A DNA stretch of 64,000 nt from contig DBXI01000076.1 in the NCBI GenBank assembly GCA_002309255.1, positions 30,946 through 94,945 of the forward strand, read 5' to 3'. This document shows, one piece after another, positions 5,395-58,036 of the stretch (the stretch's first letter is position 1; every line of letters starts with the position of its first letter). A model generated the notes under the pieces. It searched no databases. It saw only the letters and a program-made list of their open reading frames with translations, and had not been told where the DNA came from. This stretch comes from Bacteroidales bacterium UBA1216. Its GTDB lineage: Bacteria > Bacteroidota > Bacteroidia > Bacteroidales > Paludibacteraceae. The position numbers were made by a program, and so were the translations under genes.

Positions 5395-5426
5395 GAATAC
5401 CGAGATAACTGAATACCGGGATAACG
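5395..5426. repeat. 2 x 16-bp tandem duplication GAATACCGRGATAACK
   Basis: gaataccgagataact|gaataccgggataacg, in the spacer between the two ompH genes. Confidence 0.9.
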
Positions 5427-15664: not shown

Positions 15665-15672
15665 TATTTTTG
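15665..15672 (+). promoter_or_regulatory. candidate -7 box TATTTTTG for panC
   Basis: TAnnTTTG match 43 nt upstream of the panC ATG in an AT-rich divergent spacer. No clear -33 element. Confidence 0.4.
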
Positions 15673-15714: not shown

Positions 15715-16578
15715 ATGCAAATCATAACAACCAAGGCAGAGTTGGAGCATAGTATCCAAGCCTGCAAGATGAAAGGTCAGACTGTCGGATTAGTGCCGAC
15801 TATGGGTGCTCTGCATGAGGGACATGCGTCGCTCGTTCGCCGGTGTGCAAGCGAGAATGATGTAACCGTTGTCAGCGTGTTTGTCAACCCTACGCAGTTC
15901 AACAACAAGGAGGATCTGGCCAAGTACCCGCGTTCGCTACAGCGGGACGCAGAGTTGCTAAATAGCATCGGCGCGCACTTCGTCTTCGCGCCTACGCCCG
16001 AAGAAATGTACACCGCCGAAGAGATGAACGAACCATTCAAGTTTGATTTTGGCGGACTTGACGAGATGATGGAAGGTGCTATGCGACCCGGACACTTCAA
16101 TGGAGTTGTACAAGTCGTTTCGCGACTCTTCTATCTCGTCAAACCCGACCGCGCCTACTTCGGCGAAAAGGATTATCAGCAGCTCGCAATCATCCGATTC
16201 ATGGTGGAGCGCTCGGCACTCGCCGGAACATTCGGCAACTTAACCATCGTCGGATGTCCCATCGTACGCGAGCAATCCGGCTTAGCCCTCTCCTCGCGTA
16301 ACGAACGACTCTCCGCCGAACAGAAACAGATCGCACTGGGCATCTCAAAGACGCTTTTCGACTCGCTCCGGTGGGCTAAAGAACCGAACGCATCCGTCCT
16401 CGCAGTCCAGCAGCGAGTGGTGGAAAACATCAACGCTATTCATGGGCTTGAGGTAGAGTACTACCAGATTGTGGATCAGACAACACTTCTGCCCACAGAC
16501 ACCTTCAATCACGCTATTGGCTGTGTGACCGTCTACTGTGGCGCAGTCCGACTGATCGACAACATCAAATACTGCTAA
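15715..16578 (+). CDS. panC: pantoate--beta-alanine ligase
   Basis: GLVPTMGALHEGHASLV, VSVFVNPTQF and FGEKDYQQ motifs. Confidence 0.95.
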   Translation: MQIITTKAELEHSIQACKMKGQTVGLVPTMGALHEGHASLVRRCASENDVTVVSVFVNPTQFNNKEDLAKYPRSLQRDAELLNSIGAHFVFAPTPEEMYTAEEMNEPFKFDFGGLDEMMEGAMRPGHFNGVVQVVSRLFYLVKPDRAYFGEKDYQQLAIIRFMVERSALAGTFGNLTIVGCPIVREQSGLALSSRNERLSAEQKQIALGISKTLFDSLRWAKEPNASVLAVQQRVVENINAIHGLEVEYYQIVDQTTLLPTDTFNHAIGCVTVYCGAVRLIDNIKYC

Positions 16579-16597
16579 CTGAAAACGGCGACTTTGG

Positions 16598-16696
16598 TCG
16601 AGACTGCTTCGAGACTTTATCGAGGTTTTACCGAGGTTTTGTCGAGACCACCCTAGACAATACTCGAGACATCTTCGAGACATTCTCGAGACTATC
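16598..16696 (+). repeat. 9 x 11-bp phased array with 7-bp core TCGAGAC
   Basis: Unit starts are at 16598, 16609, 16620, 16631, 16642, 16653, 16664, 16675 and 16686, exactly 11 bp apart. Cores read TCGAGAC, TCGAGAC, TCGAGGT, CCGAGGT, TCGAGAC, CTAGACA, TCGAGAC, TCGAGAC, TCGAGAC, with variable 4-nt spacers. Confidence 0.95.
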
Positions 16697-16713
16697 ACGT
16701 ACCTGCTACATAC

Positions 16714-17646
16714 ATGAGAGTACTCATCGACAAATACATTCCGTTTCTGCAAGGCGTCTTAGACAGCTTTGTCGAGACTTGTTTCCTTGAACCTGAGGCC
16801 ATCACGCCTGACACGGTTCGGGATGTCGATGCGCTCATTTTGCGCACGCGCACGCGTTGTGACGCAGCTCTCCTATCCGGCAGCCGCGTGCAGTTCATCG
16901 CCACCGCCACCATCGGTACCGATCACATCGACCTCGACTACTGCCGCGAGCACAATATCCGCGTTGTCAGTTGCCCGGGCTGCAACGCACAAGCCGTCTG
17001 CGATTATTTAGAAGAAGTCCTCAACGAATCTTCAAAGCTTCAAATACTCAAATCTTCAAATACTCCTACCATCGGAGTAGTTGGAGTAGGACATGTCGGC
17101 TCATTGGTGGCTAAGATGGCTGAGCGCCGAGGCATGAATGTCGTCCTCAACGATCCGCCGCGCGGACTCCACGGAAACGTCACCACCTGCGACATCATCA
17201 CTTTCCACACGCCGCTCACACGTGAAGGACTCTATCCGACCTATCACCTCTGCGACACGGACTTCCTCGCCCGCTGCAAACATGGCGCACTCATCATCAA
17301 TGCCGCACGAGGAGGAGTGGTGGACGAACAGGCGCTACTCTGTAGCACGCAGCCGTTCGTCATTGATACCTGGGAAAACGAACCTCGTATCAATCCTGAA
17401 GTCCTCAGTCGCGCCTCGCTCGCATCTATGCACATAGCTGGATACTCCATCCAAGGAAAGCGCAACGCATCGCTGATGAGCCTCAACGCCTTGTGCAAGC
17501 ACTTCGACTTGCCGCCACTTACGCTCAATAGCGAGCAACTGCCGCAAGGCGATAACAACCCCGGATGGCTCAAACGCATATCCGACCAACTCAAAGCCAA
17601 CCCCGAACAATTTGAACAACTACGCAAAGAATATAAATTACGATAA
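16714..17646 (+). CDS. pdxB: 4-phosphoerythronate dehydrogenase (short form)
   Basis: D-2-hydroxyacid dehydrogenase fold with a PdxB-like N-terminus (IDKYIPF..., ATIGTDHIDLDYC) and NAD motif GVVGVGHVG. 310 aa, so it lacks the enterobacterial C-terminal dimerisation domain. Confidence 0.8.
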   Translation: MRVLIDKYIPFLQGVLDSFVETCFLEPEAITPDTVRDVDALILRTRTRCDAALLSGSRVQFIATATIGTDHIDLDYCREHNIRVVSCPGCNAQAVCDYLEEVLNESSKLQILKSSNTPTIGVVGVGHVGSLVAKMAERRGMNVVLNDPPRGLHGNVTTCDIITFHTPLTREGLYPTYHLCDTDFLARCKHGALIINAARGGVVDEQALLCSTQPFVIDTWENEPRINPEVLSRASLASMHIAGYSIQGKRNASLMSLNALCKHFDLPPLTLNSEQLPQGDNNPGWLKRISDQLKANPEQFEQLRKEYKLR

Positions 17647-17649
17647 TAT

Positions 17650-19140
17650 ATGGCAAATTTCCAAAAACTAACCCCACGGAGTGAAGACTACTCCAAGTGG
17701 TACAACGAACTGGTAGTAAAAGCCGACCTCGCCGAGCAGTCTGCTGTCCGCGGATGTATGGTCATCAAACCCTACGGCTACGCTATCTGGGAAACCATCC
17801 AGGCGGAACTTGACCGCCGATTCAAAGAAAAAGGTGTGCGCAACGCCTATTTCCCGCTGCTCATCCCCAAATCGTTCCTCAGCCGTGAAGCCGAGCATGT
17901 CGAAGGGTTCGCCAAGGAGTGCGCCGTCGTTACCCACCACCGCCTCAAGAACGACCCGAACGGTAAAGGCGTCATCGTCGATCCCGATGCACGACTTGAA
18001 GAGGAACTGATCATTCGTCCTACTTCAGAAACAATCATCTGGTCAACCTATAAGAACTGGATCTCCTCCTACCGCGACCTGCCCATCCTTTGCAACCAAT
18101 GGTGTAACGTTATGCGCTGGGAGATGCGTACGCGCCTCTTCCTCCGTACTGCCGAGTTCCTCTGGCAGGAAGGTCACACGGCTCACGCCACCAAGGAAGA
18201 GGCCGAAGACTACGCACGCCAGATGCTTGACGTCTATGCTGACTTCGCCGAGAACGTCATGGCAATCCCCGTCATCAAAGGTGTCAAGTCGCCCAACGAG
18301 CGTTTCGCCGGCGCGCTGAACACCTATTGCATCGAAGCCATGATGCAGGACGGCAAAGCTCTTCAAGCAGGAACATCGCACTTCCTCGGGCAGAACTTCG
18401 CCAAGTCCTTTGACGTTCAATACCTCTCCAAAGAGAACAAGTACGAATATGTTTGGGCAACCAGTTGGGGTGTATCAACTCGTCTCATGGGCGCACTCAT
18501 CATGACCCACTCTGACGACAACGGTCTCGTCCTGCCGCCGCATCTCGCTCCGACACAGGTCGTTATTGTGCCAATCTTCAAGAAACAGGAGGATCTCGAC
18601 AAACTCCTCGTTGTCCTGAATCCGCTCTTCGACCGCCTCAAAGCACGTGGCATCCGTGTCAAACTTGACACCGACGACAAATCCACGCCGGGATTCAAGT
18701 TCGCTGACTATGAACTCAAAGGCGTTCCCGTACGTCTCGCCATGGGTGGTCGTGACCTTGAAAACGGCACCATTGAGGTCGCTCGCCGTGACACCCTCAC
18801 TAAAGAAACTCTTCCTTTGGAAGGCATCGAACAGCACATAGCTGACCTGCTGGAAGCCGTGCAGCAGAACTGCTACCAGAAGGCACTCGACTACCGCATA
18901 GCCAACACTCGCGAGGTCAACTCCTATGACGAGTTCAAGGAGGAGATCAAGAAAGGCGGTTTCCTGCTCTGCCACTGGGACGGAACACCCGAAACGGAGG
19001 AGCAGATCAAGAACGATACCAAGGCCACTATCCGATGCATTCCTCTTGATCCTTTACATGGACACAAGCAGGAAGAAGGCCGTTGCATGGTAACAGGCAA
19101 ACCCTCCGCCGGACGAGTAGTCTTCGCCATCGCTTACTAA
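17650..19140 (+). CDS. proS: proline--tRNA ligase (archaeal/eukaryote-like type)
   Basis: Class II aaRS motifs, 496 aa, C-terminal ...VVFAIAY typical of this ProRS subtype. Confidence 0.93.
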
Positions 19141-19141
19141 A

Positions 19142-19165
19142 TCTAATTTCTGACTTCTGATTTCT
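19142..19165. repeat. heptad array TCTAATT|TCTGACT|TCTGATT|TCT ending at the rdgB ATG
   Basis: Read directly. The reverse complement (AGAAATC AGAAGTC AGAAATT) belongs to the GAAAKTN heptad family but lies antisense to the downstream gene. Confidence 0.85.
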
Positions 19166-19729
19166 ATGAAATTGGTTTTTGCATCGAATAACGCCCACAA
19201 ACTCCAAGAGGTTCGTGCCATCTTGCCCGAGCACGAGATACTCAGCCTCGAGGATATCGGTTGTCACGCCGATATCCCCGAGACGGCGGATACTCTTGAG
19301 GGCAACTCGCTCATCAAGGCGCAGTACATCTACGACCACTATCATTGCGACTGCTTGGCCGATGACACCGGCTTGGAGATTGAGGCTCTCGGCAACCAGC
19401 CCGGCGTACGTACCGCACGCTGGGCTGGTGAACCGGCTAACCCTGCCAACAACCGCGCCAAAGCCTTACGCGAACTTGCCGACCAGACCAACCGAAACGC
19501 ACGCTTCCGCACTGTGATCACCCTCATCCGTGGCTGCAAGGTTGAGCAGGTAGAAGGCATCGTCCGTGGCAGAATTGCCGAAGCCGAGTACGGTAACGGG
19601 GGATTTGGCTACGACCCGCTCTTCATCCCCGAAGGCTACGACCGCACCTTCGCCGAACTGCCGGCTGAGCTCAAGAACACCATCAGCCATCGCGCAAGGG
19701 CTCTGCAAGCACTCAAGCAATTACTCTAA
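19166..19729 (+). CDS. rdgB: non-canonical purine NTP pyrophosphatase (dITP/XTP, RdgB/HAM1 family)
   Basis: MKLVFASNNAHKLQEV, EETG-like TLEGNS, FGYDPLF and SHRARA motifs. Confidence 0.9.
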   Translation: MKLVFASNNAHKLQEVRAILPEHEILSLEDIGCHADIPETADTLEGNSLIKAQYIYDHYHCDCLADDTGLEIEALGNQPGVRTARWAGEPANPANNRAKALRELADQTNRNARFRTVITLIRGCKVEQVEGIVRGRIAEAEYGNGGFGYDPLFIPEGYDRTFAELPAELKNTISHRARALQALKQLL

Positions 19730-31418: not shown

Positions 31419-31446
31419 TTAACTGTTAATTGTTAACCGTTAATTA
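31419..31446. repeat. 4 x 7-bp array TTAACTG|TTAATTG|TTAACCG|TTAATTA
   Basis: Read directly. The last unit contains the rpmH stop codon (TTA at 31444-31446 on the plus strand). Confidence 0.9.
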
Positions 31447-34702: not shown

Positions 34703-34764
34703 GGAAAGTGAAAAGTGAAGTAGTCGTTCGAGTGTAACGAGATAAGAAAAGTGAAAGGTGAAAG
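34703..34764 (+). repeat. two heptad blocks (GGAAAGT|GAAAAGT|GAAGTAG ... GAAAAGT|GAAAGGT|GAAAG) flanking a small hairpin; fills the AraC-miaB spacer
   Basis: Read directly. The second block ends exactly at the miaB ATG (34765). Confidence 0.85.
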
Positions 34765-36415: not shown

Positions 36416-36580
36416 ATGGCTAAGAAGAAGTCAAAGAAAAATGTCCCTGTTCTTCCGCAGGTGGTACAACAACCGATGCCTGTACCGGAAGTGGAAGAAG
36501 AGTTGTTCGACCTGAGCAATCCCGATGAGTTTCGCAAAGCCTTTATTGCCTCAGAGATATTGGGTAGGAAATACTGTTGA
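36416..36580 (+). CDS. small ORF, 54 aa (MAKKKSKKNVPVLPQVVQQPMPVPEVEEELFDLSNPDEFRKAFIASEILGRKYC)
   Basis: ATG at 36416, TGA at 36578-36580. Below the track cutoff. Non-repetitive composition with a basic N-terminus and acidic core. The only ORF filling the gap upstream of greA. Confidence 0.45.
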   Translation: MAKKKSKKNVPVLPQVVQQPMPVPEVEEELFDLSNPDEFRKAFIASEILGRKYC

Positions 36581-36613
36581 AATGTGAAAGGTGAAAATTG
36601 AAAGATAAAAGGA
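36579..36613 (+). repeat. heptad array GAAATGT|GAAAGGT|GAAAATT|GAAAGAT|AAAAGGA in the greA leader
   Basis: Read directly. It starts inside the stop codon of the 54-aa ORF. Confidence 0.9.
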
Positions 36614-43434: not shown

Positions 43435-43489
43435 CTCTCGATGATGTCTCGATGAAGTCTCGATATTGTCTCGACAAAGTCGGACAAAA
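43435..43489 (-). repeat. 5 x 11-bp phased array, same TCGAGAC core family as 16598-16696 but in inverted orientation
   Basis: Plus strand reads ctctcgatgat|gtctcgatgaa|gtctcgatatt|gtctcgacaaa|gtcggacaaaa. Unit starts are at 43435, 43446, 43457, 43468 and 43479. The reverse complement gives TCGAGAC cores. Confidence 0.95.
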
Positions 43490-43517
43490 ATACGGGTATT
43501 ATGTAAAATAGCCTATT

Positions 43518-50171: not shown

Positions 50172-51641
50172 ATGCAACTATCAGAACTTTTCACACAAGC
50201 CACGGGCAAGCCGGCAGGCGAGCAGACTTCTCTGACCGCATCAGGGAGCAACCGGCGTTATTTTCGTATATGGAGCGAGGATAAGCAGGTGACGCTCATC
50301 GGCGTAGAAGGTACGTCGCATGACGAGAATCATGCTTTCCTTATGATGGCTGCGCACTTTGCCGGCCAGGAACTGAATGTTCCACGCGTGCTCGCTGTCA
50401 GTGAAGACGAGATGCTATATGTGCAGGAAGACCTGGGTAATACGCTGCTATTTGACTACATAGCCGAGGGGCGAAAAACCGGTGTGTTCTGCGAACGTGA
50501 GAAAGTGATGCTCAGAAAAACCATACGTGCGTTAGCACGCTTTCAACTGAAGGCGGCAGAGAATTTTGACTTCAACGTATGCTACCCGCAGCCGGAGTTC
50601 AACTTGAGGAGTATCCGCTGGGATCTGAACTACTTCAAGTACTGCTTCCTTAAAGCAACGGGGCTTGAGTTCCAGGAGGATAAACTGGAAAATGAGTTTG
50701 AGCGCCTGGCATATATCCTGCTTCAGCAGAAGCAGATGAATGCATTCATGTACCGTGACTTTCAGAGCCGTAACGTGATGGTTGTTGAAAGTCAAAAGTC
50801 GAAAGTCGAAAGCGATAGAGAGTTGGAGCCGTACTTCATCGACTTCCAGGGCGGAAGGCGTGGCCCCATATACTACGATGTCGCCTCGTTCCTGTGGCAA
50901 GCTAAGGCGAACTTCCACGATGAGCTGCGCCACGAACTCATCGAGGAATATCTAGATGAACTATGTAAGTACATAGAGGTTGACAAGAAGGAGTTCTACG
51001 CCACGCTCCGGCACTTCGTGCTCTTCCGGACGATGCAGGTGCTCGGTGCTTATGGCTTCCGCGGCTACTTTGAGAAGAAACCCCACTTCTTGCAATCTAT
51101 ACCCTTTGCTATCGAGAATCTCCGCCGTCTGCTCAAAGACGCAGCGGATGACTACCCTTACCTGATCGAGGTGCTGCACGAGATGACCGAGATGAAACAG
51201 TTCAAGGAGGTGAATGTTAGGAAACCGCTGGTGGTGAAGGCCTATTCGTTCTCGTTCAAGAAAGGAATCCCTGCGGATGATAGCGGCAATGGTGGCGGCT
51301 TTGTGTTCGATTGCCGTGCGGTGAACAACCCCGGTAAGTACGAGCGCTATAACCACTACACCGGTATGGATGAGCCGGTAATCAAGTTCCTGGAGGAGGA
51401 TGGCGAGATCTTCCCCTTCCTGGATGCAGCCTACCGATTGGTGGATGCCAGCGTCAAGCGCTACAAGGATCGTGGGTTCACCAGTCTCATGGTCAGCTTC
51501 GGCTGCACGGGCGGACAGCACCGCTCTGTTTATGCCGCCGAGAAGATGGCAGAACACATCAACGAGAAATTCGGCGTCGAGGTGCGCCTCATTCACCGCG
51601 AACAGAACGTGGAACGCACACTCCCGGAGAAAGAAAAATGA
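50172..51641 (+). CDS. fusion protein: AmgK-like anomeric sugar kinase (APH fold) + RapZ C-terminal-like domain
   Basis: N-terminal half has YRDFQSRNVMV (catalytic loop) and IDFQGGRRGPIYYDVASFL (DFQ..GP..YD motif of AmgK-type kinases). C-terminal half has FVFDCRAVNNPG and SFGCTGGQHRSVYAAEKMAEHI (RapZ/YhbJ C-domain signature GCTGGQHRSV). Confidence 0.75.
   Translation: MQLSELFTQATGKPAGEQTSLTASGSNRRYFRIWSEDKQVTLIGVEGTSHDENHAFLMMAAHFAGQELNVPRVLAVSEDEMLYVQEDLGNTLLFDYIAEGRKTGVFCEREKVMLRKTIRALARFQLKAAENFDFNVCYPQPEFNLRSIRWDLNYFKYCFLKATGLEFQEDKLENEFERLAYILLQQKQMNAFMYRDFQSRNVMVVESQKSKVESDRELEPYFIDFQGGRRGPIYYDVASFLWQAKANFHDELRHELIEEYLDELCKYIEVDKKEFYATLRHFVLFRTMQVLGAYGFRGYFEKKPHFLQSIPFAIENLRRLLKDAADDYPYLIEVLHEMTEMKQFKEVNVRKPLVVKAYSFSFKKGIPADDSGNGGGFVFDCRAVNNPGKYERYNHYTGMDEPVIKFLEEDGEIFPFLDAAYRLVDASVKRYKDRGFTSLMVSFGCTGGQHRSVYAAEKMAEHINEKFGVEVRLIHREQNVERTLPEKEK
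50787..50814 (+). repeat. in-frame heptad array GAAAGTC|AAAAGTC|GAAAGTC|GAAAGCG inside the kinase CDS
   Basis: Encodes ESQKSKVES, located between the catalytic loop and the DFQ motif. Confidence 0.9.
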
Positions 51642-52414: not shown

Positions 52415-53334
52415 GAGTAATTATCAATCCCAAATCGGGTAAAAAAGCTTACCGTCGGCAACGAATGTACCTGTGGAACCTATTGCGCGAGCGCCATATA
52501 CCTTATGAGTTCCGCGTAACCAAATATGCTGCTCATGCTACGGAGTTGGCGCGCGAACTGGTAGAGGATTTTGGCTGCGACGAGATCCTTGTTATAGGCG
52601 GCGATGGCACATTGTCAGAAACACTGAACGGAATCATGCGCGCCAAGATCTCTGCAGAGCAACGTAGGAAGATCCAACTCGGTCTGATGCCTCGTGGCAC
52701 AGGCAACGATTGGGGCAGGTACTGGAACCTGACGAAGAACTACCGTGATGCTATTGAGCGTTTCCTGTCGGGCGAAGGCCATCCGCTGGATGTGGGATGC
52801 GTCACGTACTGGCGCAATCATATTGAGCACCATCGCTACTTCATCAACTCCGTAGGATTCGGTGTCGATCCGCTGTGTTGCCAGAAAGCTGAGAAACTCA
52901 AGTACTACCTCGGCTCACATCACGTGAACTACCTGTTCGGATTGATCGGAGCTATCATGGAGCAGAAACCGATACCCATGCAACTGGTGGTGGATGGAGA
53001 GGTGCTGGTGCACGAAGCCTTGTTCACCATGAATGTAGGCAATGGCCCATATTCAGGAGGTGGTATCAAGCAGAATCCTGATGCCGACCCACAGGACGGC
53101 GTATTCCATGGGATGTTCGTGTGCAAGCCTACACTCATACAAATCATCCGTGCATTGCCTAACCTATTCAATGGCAAACTGACCGAACTTCCGTTCATCC
53201 ATGCCTATGTGGGCAAGGATATCCGTATGGAGACCGAAGAACATTTGCTCTTTGAGGCTGATGGCATATTGCAGAATGTGATGGGACCATGTGAGGTGCA
53301 TTGTATCCATCATGCTTTACAATTTAAAGTATAG
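52408..53334 (+). CDS. diacylglycerol/lipid kinase family protein (YegS/BmrU-like)
   Basis: IINPKSGKK..., ILVIGGDGTLSE DAGK catalytic motif, 308 aa. 7-nt overlap with the upstream gene. Confidence 0.82.
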   Translation: MLGVIINPKSGKKAYRRQRMYLWNLLRERHIPYEFRVTKYAAHATELARELVEDFGCDEILVIGGDGTLSETLNGIMRAKISAEQRRKIQLGLMPRGTGNDWGRYWNLTKNYRDAIERFLSGEGHPLDVGCVTYWRNHIEHHRYFINSVGFGVDPLCCQKAEKLKYYLGSHHVNYLFGLIGAIMEQKPIPMQLVVDGEVLVHEALFTMNVGNGPYSGGGIKQNPDADPQDGVFHGMFVCKPTLIQIIRALPNLFNGKLTELPFIHAYVGKDIRMETEEHLLFEADGILQNVMGPCEVHCIHHALQFKV

Positions 53335-53375
53335 AAAGGTGAAAGTTGAAAGGTGAAAATTGAAAGGTGGAAGAG
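53334..53375 (+). repeat. 6 x 7-bp array GAAAGGT|GAAAGTT|GAAAGGT|GAAAATT|GAAAGGT|GGAAGAG
   Basis: Starts on the last base of the lipid kinase stop codon and contains the candidate rsmH GTG start (53367). Confidence 0.95.
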
Positions 53376-57974: not shown

Positions 57975-58036
57975 TTACATAGCCAAATGATTAAATAAAT
58001 GGCCAAATGGTAAATGACTAAATTGTAAATTACTTT

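Follow-up and report, generated by a model that had tools for sequence, protein, structure and literature searches.

The spacer between panC and pdxB in Bacteroidales bacterium UBA1216 carries nine short direct repeats placed 11 bp apart, which raises the question of whether these repeats are a by-product of replication, a spreading element, or a site that is read by the cell. We addressed this question in a window of 64,000 nt, the whole stretch of DNA analysed, to which all positions below refer. The window is core chromosome, with uppS, ompH, mreB/C, rodA, rsmH and mraY, and both mre and dcw genes are present. Homologues of its genes are labelled Paludibacteraceae, and related contigs come from ruminant gut metagenomes, as judged by their records.

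Structure of the panC-pdxB array

The array lies among the following features:

15665..15672, + strand: nearest Bacteroidetes-type -7 box on this strand, TATTTTTG, upstream of panC
15715..16578, + strand: panC (pantoate--beta-alanine ligase; TIGR00018, 290 bits), upstream of the array
16579..16597, + strand: left flank, non-repeat, ctgaaaacggcgactttgg
16598..16696, + strand: focal array, nine 11-bp units, each a core TCGAG(A/G)(C/T) and a 4-nt A/T-biased spacer
16697..16713, + strand: right flank, ACGTACCTGCTACATAC, which matches CGTATCCnnCCnnnACC, the first part of a conserved tail module of relatives
16714..17646, + strand: pdxB-type 4-phosphoerythronate dehydrogenase gene, downstream of the array

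Between the panC stop codon (16578) and the pdxB ATG (16714) lie 135 nt, of which the array accounts for 99. As the initial annotation had it, the repeats end 17 nt before this ATG and include six perfect TCGAGAC units (starting at 16598, 16609, 16642, 16664, 16675 and 16686); Tandem Repeats Finder likewise reports a period of 11 with 0% indels. Two further units have the variant cores TCGAGGT (16620) and CCGAGGT (16631). The claim that the array runs without a single indel, however, needs correction at unit 6, which matches the core at 0 of 7 positions when read in phase (16653-16659, CTAGACA) and at 5 of 7 when read one base earlier (16652-16658, CCTAGAC). The spacing at this unit is 10 bp and then 12 bp, and the phase is regained at 16664. 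Nor do all of the 4-nt spacers differ, as had been stated: TTTA is present twice, adjoining TTTG, and ATCT and ATTC are also neighbours. Neighbouring units thus form subfamilies (units 3/4 and units 7/8/9), which we take to be traces of tandem duplication. Positions C2, G3, A4 and G5 of the core are invariant across 12 units in the window.

The AAACGG motif of the left flank is common to the array-bearing spacers of four other loci (L105, L106, L114 and L192), and the remainder of the tail module (TATATATACATAGTATATAT CCCGTGATTTTGAA) is absent from the right flank in the window. A coding role was considered and rejected: a 135-aa open reading frame on the minus strand spans the array, and an indel of 11 bp throws it out of frame in L192. 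A public short-read contig of the same species (L185, a Logan contig from run SRR094437) begins inside the array at CCTAGACAATAC, indicating that the repeat breaks assemblies.

Phased runs were sought as at least three units in 11-bp phase, each with no more than two mismatches to the core, with shuffled windows serving as the control. Four such segments are present in the window (16598, 16664, 43435 on the minus strand, and 38969 inside mreC), compared with 0.28 in shuffled windows, and no phased runs were found in the window at periods of 7-10, 12-14 or 16. The phase and cores of the focal array are therefore far beyond chance. Autocorrelation of the intergenic DNA gives modest peaks at 7, 11, 14 and 22. 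The heptamer TCGAGAC itself occurs 14 times in the window (8.7 +/- 2.7 expected), with 9 of the 14 copies inside two arrays. The five single copies outside arrays are no enrichment in the window, so the isolated copies at 16772 and 33811, to which attention had been drawn, are unremarkable. Within the window, the enrichment anticipated for the motif over shuffled sequence thus holds for phased arrays and not for single copies.

A second array of opposite orientation and its operon context

Two of the phased segments lie away from panC-pdxB:

43435..43489, - strand: second array, same core inverted, between rodA and tcdA, 15 nt past the rodA stop codon
38969..39018, + strand: possible degenerate in-phase run inside mreC, TCGAGCC GTTT ACGAGTC ATCT ACGAGCC GTTT TCGAAGC

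Read on the + strand, the second array consists of CTCTCGA, three copies of GTCTCGA and GTCGGAC, each followed by 4 nt. The run inside mreC comprises five in-phase units 11 bp apart (TCGAGCC, ACGAGTC, ACGAGCC, TCGAAGC and GCGAAGG); it may be due to chance, with 0.28 runs expected per window, or may be an array that was absorbed into the gene. Next to the second array, a conserved ATGTAA start-stop pair (attATGTAAaatagcc) is present at 43500-43517 and in L186, 14 nt upstream of the tcdA ATG, and one public gene call places the TcdA start 21 codons later.

The focal array lies in an operon of the order panC-pdxB-proS-rdgB, wherein proS begins 3 nt after pdxB; the PdxB product aligns with its homologues from residue 1. 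The -7 box at 15665 is likely the promoter of this operon. No TAnnTTTG sequence was found between this box and pdxB, which agrees with the earlier observation that the spacer lacks such a promoter, and a search for TTTG/TAnnTTTG (-33/-7) promoters found none in the spacer of either array. Promoters of this type (TTTG ... TAnnTTTG) are located in the window at 709, 15624 (minus), 31711 (minus), 36197 and 50092, and a scan for sigma-70 promoters and terminators gave nothing meaningful. Without a promoter in either spacer, both arrays must be operon-internal and transcribed. The transcript of the second array is the complement of the UCGAGAC repeats of the focal array. The genes that flank arrays are unrelated housekeeping genes with no common function, and a search for a gene family that recurs beside arrays found none.

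Arrays of this core form a dispersed family

A scan of a genome collection in which three phased perfect cores were required returned 104 loci. Approximately 44 of these are from Bacteroidota, many in Paludibacteraceae or unclassified Bacteroidales MAGs, and arrays of the same core are present in at least 20 Bacteroidales/Paludibacteraceae MAGs. Most of the remaining loci, from unrelated phyla, are perfect tandem repeats of 11 bp, as expected for background; a scan of viral contigs gave four matches and was uninformative. Arrays in Bacteroidales are almost all intergenic (one, L098, is inside a long open reading frame) and often begin within about 20 nt of a stop codon. At co-directional gene pairs, 7 arrays are in sense and 12 in antisense orientation, and other arrays are located between convergent genes. 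In the literature that was searched, no account of the TCGAGAC motif or of 11-bp arrays in Bacteroidetes was found.

Two MAGs, UMGS451 and RUG12984, carry five loci each, with arrays and flanks that are nearly identical within a MAG. The five loci of UMGS451 (L049, L057, L060, L065 and L073), together with L023, share a near-identical three-unit element, TCGAGACCTTG-TCGAGACCTCA-TCGAGACCTAA. Flanks are conserved among the five UMGS451 loci, two of which lie between convergent genes, and L049, L065 and L023 also have about 45 nt downstream in common.

Other modules accompany the arrays. The tail module follows 11-bp arrays and is composed of CGTATCCnnCCnnnACC (CGTATCC..ACC), TATATATACATAGTATATAT (an 8-bp inverted repeat) and CCCGTGATTTTGAA. 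L194-L197 carry it at panC|pdxB, L034, L039 and L085 carry it at unrelated junctions, and L102 has a variant (module positions: L085, 1745-1815; L194, 3420-3490; L196, 9925-9995), and the order in these composites is array, tail, start codon. Even between species with saturated 4-fold sites the module is identical; it is possibly an operator or an RNA hairpin. In two different MAGs (L085, 1640-1745, and L034), a conserved element of about 100 nt with an 8-bp hairpin (GGAGAAGCCAATTGACTTTTGGCTTCGAAAAG ... GGAGCCTAAGCCGA) separates two TCGAGAC arrays. Rfam searches gave no match for the window at the gathering threshold, for the focal spacer at E<=10, or for the tail module and the ~100-nt element.

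Intergenic tracts of 100-250 bp that are 11-bp periodic throughout were also observed in Chitinophagaceae/Sphingobacteriaceae (L002, L013, L015, L022, L026, L045, L074, L088, L100 and L104; L017, L028, L056, L072 and L095). Their cores are TCGAGAC, TCCGGAC and TTCGAC. Successive blocks of these tracts differ in unit (CTTATCGAGAC, CTTATCCGGAC or TTCGACTnnnn), and degeneracy rises towards one end.

The panC|pdxB junction among relatives

Orthologous junctions were gathered by a metagenome scan with PdxB. Many relatives have no spacer at this junction, and the panC stop codon overlaps the pdxB start codon as TGATG or TAATG (L107-L113 and L116-L118). On the evidence of these spacerless relatives, the focal spacer is a dispensable addition to a formerly coupled junction. 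The spacers of L105, L106 and L114 hold 11-bp arrays of TCGAGGTTTTA, TCGGGGTTTTA or TCGAGGGATTA behind the AAACGG flank, and this shared flank indicates that they are homologous with the spacer in the window; the arrays of L105 and L106 reach to 2-5 nt from the start codon. At the same junction, L119 carries GAAAGGT heptamers and L120 carries 8-mers.

In more distant relatives the unit consensus has changed wholesale, to CCGAGGCATTA in L194, TAGGGACTGAG in L196 and TCGGGGTTTTA in L106. Yet panC|pdxB has retained 11-bp arrays of related core despite saturation of 4-fold sites, whose identity among the lineages of the PdxB scan is 35-55%. When 485 kb from relatives selected through pdxB were searched strictly for three TCGRG at 11-bp intervals, no match lay beyond the window, as the degeneracy of related arrays defeats exact patterns. 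Furthermore, the panC and pdxB trees of these relatives disagree, which suggests recombination at the junction. Neither terminal inverted repeats nor target duplications were seen there.

Other junction repeats in the window

In the window, nearly all spacers of about 60 nt between co-directional genes consist of short imperfect tandem repeats, including the following:

34746-34764, 36578-36612 and 53334-53373: (T)GAAAGG(T) heptamer arrays, directly after stop or before start codons
51636-51671 and 57996-58030: 15-bp repeats on TAAATGAC / AAATGG
1477: 10-mer repeat
5395-5425: 16-bp repeat GAATACCGAGATAACT, 1.9 copies, in the spacer before ompH, with a CCGAGAT core similar to that of the arrays
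453-509: another 11-bp array, AATCACCTACT, 5.2 copies
31419-31445: run of TTAACTG/TTAATTG/TTAACCG heptamers, resembling intergenic TAACTGA repeats (PMC4679880)

An outer-membrane beta-barrel gene has a canonical Bacteroidetes promoter at 709-740, about 200 nt downstream of the AATCACCTACT array. The pdxB|proS and proS|rdgB junctions of relatives vary from 1 to 61 nt and carry differing 7-8-mers. Each (T)GAAAGG(T) unit contains TGA, so that three units place a stop codon in every frame. Such a role in providing stop codons in all three frames fits repeats with TGA/TAA units (TGAAAGG and GTCTCGATAAA) and was rejected for the focal array. A role as Shine-Dalgarno-like GAGG repeats was also set aside; it fits only the sense-oriented panC|pdxB arrays and not the inverted array.

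Orthologous arrays are conserved

The focal array is identical in two further assemblies of the same species (L190/L191), as is the rodA|tcdA array in L188/L189, and copy number is equal across three same-species assemblies. Given a local divergence of about 0.7%, these comparisons bear on copy-number stability and say nothing on substitutions. A substitution test within the species was abandoned: identity at 4-fold sites relative to L190 is 0.924 owing to two recombinant tracts in proS, with about 0.7% divergence near the spacer and in panC and pdxB. These strain differences cluster densely at 17688-17940 and 18909-19185, and the two tracts look like recombination imports.

Substitutions were therefore examined against one sister species per array (L192/L193 for panC|pdxB and L186/L187 for rodA|tcdA; ~84% nucleotide identity), with 4-fold sites within 400 nt of each spacer as the reference (identity 0.59-0.61). 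The sister panC|pdxB array keeps both place and phase, including the irregular 10+12 spacing at unit 6, and its sole length change is one extra 11-bp unit, with CCGAGACTCCA duplicated in L192. The sister rodA|tcdA array has the same five units, and its four good cores show 0 changes in 28 positions (L186). The consensus heptamer is the same in both arrays of the sister species. An alignment across strains had been proposed in the initial annotation as a check on whether core and phase are kept while copy number varies; core and phase are indeed kept, and copy number is stable except for the one unit that differs in the sister species.

When both arrays are summed, 8 of 98 core positions and 11 of 56 spacer positions are changed relative to the sister species, compared with 97 of 243 4-fold sites (core vs 4-fold, p = 1e-9; spacer vs 4-fold, p = 0.005; core vs spacer, p = 0.044). 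Orthologous copies are thus 3- to 5-fold more conserved than 4-fold sites, cores most of all, and the whole spacer is conserved beyond its cores. Most of the core changes are toggles between the family variants GAC and GGT. These counts support the earlier proposal, which read the combination of conserved cores, fixed phase and freer spacers as the mark of a recognition element under selection.

Two control repeats behave differently. The sister species lacks the GAAAGGT array at 53335-53373 through a 33-nt indel, and in the sister L186 unrelated GAAAG-type heptamers stand in place of the 15-mer array at 51636, with 46% identity across the spacer. Deletion or replacement of these controls indicates that conservation is specific to the TCGAG arrays. 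On these sequence comparisons, arrays of both orientations are thus under purifying selection that is strongest on the heptamer. Slippage driven by palindromes (TCGA/CTCGAG hairpins) was rejected as the cause of core conservation, since L105 keeps GGT and not TCGA and copy number is stable in the sister species.

A putative protein-binding platform on double-stranded DNA

Our preferred explanation, to which we give a little less than an even chance, is that the arrays are a dispersed family of binding sites on double-stranded DNA for a putative cooperative protein, born by tandem duplication. Specifically, an 11-bp unit would have been tandemly duplicated in the panC/pdxB junction, which is spacerless in most relatives. 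The resulting array, a member of a dispersed family in rumen Paludibacteraceae-like Bacteroidales, has then been retained by purifying selection, strongest on the heptamer. The TCGAG(A/G)(C/T) boxes, one per 11 bp, would form a recognition platform, and copies of one putative DNA-binding protein would bind (TCGAGACNNNN)n side by side and cooperatively.

We infer a protein as the reader from the two conserved arrays in the window: they give complementary transcript strands, for which a protein on double-stranded DNA would be the simplest reader. The 11-bp phasing, the whole-unit indels and the compensated shift at unit 6 would fit cooperative binding along the helix. There is a precedent for heptamers with less conserved 4-nt spacers to which monomers bind cooperatively at 11-bp spacing (PMC5930380). 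At 11.0 bp per unit, boxes drift from a 10.5-bp helical repeat by about 4 bp over eight steps, or roughly 140 degrees, and the complex would therefore have to twist or wrap the DNA. The suggestion that every core is placed on one face of the helix thus fails at 10.5 bp, and would hold only if bound protein underwinds or reshapes the DNA.

Because the arrays are operon-internal with no promoter behind them, and because the inverted sister array is equally conserved, the effect is likely to be on the DNA itself. The operon-internal position would suit an architectural site, or a bound protein that acts between cistrons as a roadblock or insulator, and any consequence for transcription would follow from such binding; the array is unlikely to activate a pdxB promoter.

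In unit size and number, the focal array resembles the centromere-like iterons of plasmids. The parC locus of plasmid R1 (a type II centromere with ParR iterons) and other ribbon-helix-helix arrays have about ten direct 11-bp repeats that are cooperatively bound in a higher-order complex, and the length of the ParR/parC array outweighs any single box. Unlike these systems, the TCGAG arrays adjoin no parM or parR: their neighbours are panC, pdxB, proS, rodA and tcdA, in a window with mre and dcw genes. They lie in chromosomal housekeeping operons, with several dispersed arrays per genome.

Several observations speak against a binding platform. The wholesale change of consensus in distant relatives fits poorly with one fixed protein specificity. 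The site is dispensable, and labile junction repeats abound in the lineage. At non-orthologous loci, composite arrays are accompanied by conserved flanking modules, which looks like copy-and-paste spread. Finally, the contrast between cores and spacers reaches just p = 0.044, and no gene family recurs beside the arrays.

A bolder version of the proposal, which we regard as doubtful, is that TCGAG-core 11-bp arrays constitute a chromosomal platform for a putative undescribed Bacteroidota protein that would assemble into filaments or rings on intergenic DNA and act as an operon-internal roadblock/insulator or nucleoid organiser. The arrays would be slippage-born, mosaic-spread and selection-retained, and the Chitinophagaceae/Sphingobacteriaceae tracts would belong to the same system, which would then span the phylum.

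Alternative explanations

The serious rival, although we judge it unlikely, is a selfish or mosaic repetitive extragenic element resembling REP/BIME or pneumococcal BOX, with the array as a variable-number module that spreads by copy-and-paste, has no host role and is merely a tolerated insertion. REP/BIME and BOX elements are intergenic, lie in either orientation, are often co-transcribed, and are modular with an internal module of variable copy number; their presence is polymorphic at orthologous sites. The TCGAG arrays are likewise multi-copy, intergenic and found in both orientations, also between convergent genes. They are present or absent at an orthologous junction whose TGATG overlap is intact in many relatives. 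The near-identical arrays and flanks at 5 loci in UMGS451 and 5 in RUG12984, the tail module (TATATATACATAGTATATAT CCCGTGATTTTGAA) and the ~100-nt module that accompany arrays at unrelated loci, and the recombination suggested by discordant panC and pdxB trees all favour such spread.

Such an element would be expected to decay at the neutral rate, however, whereas conservation of the orthologous copies exceeds that of 4-fold sites 3- to 5-fold and is highest in the cores. Neither a transposase nor any other recurrent gene that might mobilise the arrays is nearby, and the panC|pdxB junction shows no terminal inverted repeats or target duplications. The repeated module is merely 11 bp, with no strong palindromic hairpin of the REP or BOX kind (fold z -1.9 and -1.5). 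Spread and host function are mutually compatible.

A lesser and less probable rival is an intercistronic element that acts at the RNA level, either through phased sites for an RNA-binding protein or Rho (one UC per 11 nt), or as an unstructured or standby leader that frees pdxB initiation from coupling to panC. Both window arrays, being operon-internal, must be transcribed, and conservation against the sister species covers the whole spacer rather than the cores alone. The arrays of L105/L106 that end 2-5 nt from the start codon and the order of the tail composites (array, tail, start codon) would also suit a leader. Furthermore, intergenic TAACTGA repeats, also found in Paludibacter, have been proposed as post-transcriptional sites (PMC4679880). 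Against an RNA element, the two conserved window arrays yield complementary RNAs, and related loci are divided between 7 sense and 12 antisense arrays, with others between convergent genes. In addition, Rfam has no match, folding is only mildly better than that of shuffled sequences (z -1.9, -1.5), and compensatory changes were not seen.

The TAACTGA heptamers are dispersed intergenic direct repeats of Beggiatoaceae, cyanobacteria and some Bacteroidetes including Paludibacter (PMC4679880). Like these, cyanobacterial STRR and the long simple-sequence repeats with 5-11-nt units, the TCGAG arrays are short intergenic direct repeats at many loci near start and stop codons. TAACTGA heptamers are contiguous, with no core/spacer split, and are mostly forward relative to the start codon. 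In contrast, TCGAG arrays have an 11-bp core and spacer, occur in both orientations and show measurable purifying selection while neighbouring heptamers are labile.

An operator of OmpR/PhoB or SARP type, from which an activator would turn on a pdxB promoter, is very improbable despite the resemblance in layout. The initial annotation had likened the 7-bp repeat and 4-bp spacer on an 11-bp period to OmpR/PhoB direct-repeat sites, and the array does show the direct 6-7-bp repeats, 4-5-bp spacers and 10-11-bp period of that class. Heptamer boxes with less conserved 4-nt spacers at an 11-bp period are common to OmpR/PhoB and SARP operators and the 11-nt direct repeat units of Streptomyces PhoP, and monomers bind successive boxes cooperatively (PMC5930380; PMC2275107). 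In these operators, 2-3 boxes lie at a set distance from a promoter and in a set orientation to it, and OmpR/PhoB sites are at or adjoining the -35 element. TCGAG arrays have 5-11 boxes in either orientation, operon-internal or between convergent genes, with no promoter, and their hosts are Bacteroidales rather than Actinobacteria or Proteobacteria.

A SARP operator usually comprises three heptamers, 11 bp apart, that end just upstream of the -10 box of an actinobacterial secondary-metabolite promoter. The classical SARP heptamer, which we take to be TCGAGNN, has the same first five bases as the array core. The focal array matches in period and core/spacer split (PMC5930380) but has nine units, not two or three, and lies promoterless in a Bacteroidales housekeeping operon, with no -7/-33 promoter in or after it. 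Given this, the inverted sister array, the arrays between convergent genes and the junctions that are spacerless in many relatives, neither promoter context nor orientation agrees with the Pho-box-like promoter site originally suggested for pdxB, and the flanking genes show no functional theme.

A neutral micro- or minisatellite made by replication slippage without selection is disfavoured and hardly credible: the unit subfamilies (3/4, 7/8/9, and CCGAGACTCCA duplicated in L192) do indicate tandem duplication, the lineage is rich in fast-turnover junction repeats, and some bacteria have long simple-sequence repeats of 5-11-nt units (Mrazek 2007, as cited in PMC4679880), but copy number is equal in three same-species assemblies and one unit off at ~40% neutral divergence, cores are conserved relative to 4-fold sites (p = 1e-9), and unrelated loci and unrelated genomes share the core. 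The varying copy number and homogeneous units of hypervariable simple-sequence repeats are likewise not seen, as L190/L191 and L188/L189 are identical and the spacers are heterogeneous.

Implications

If a protein reads these arrays as a binding platform, they would represent a new pair of cis element and factor in a phylum, Bacteroidota, for which transcription and nucleoid biology are poorly mapped. Its action would be inside housekeeping operons (panC-pdxB-proS and mre-rodA-tcdA) and not at promoters. On the practical side, the arrays break short-read assemblies and could serve as lineage markers in rumen metagenomes. The panC|pdxB junction is also a natural example of the birth of intergenic DNA, in which a spacerless, translationally coupled junction gains a tandem repeat, and the window as a whole illustrates that some repeat families may be kept by selection while neighbouring ones churn.
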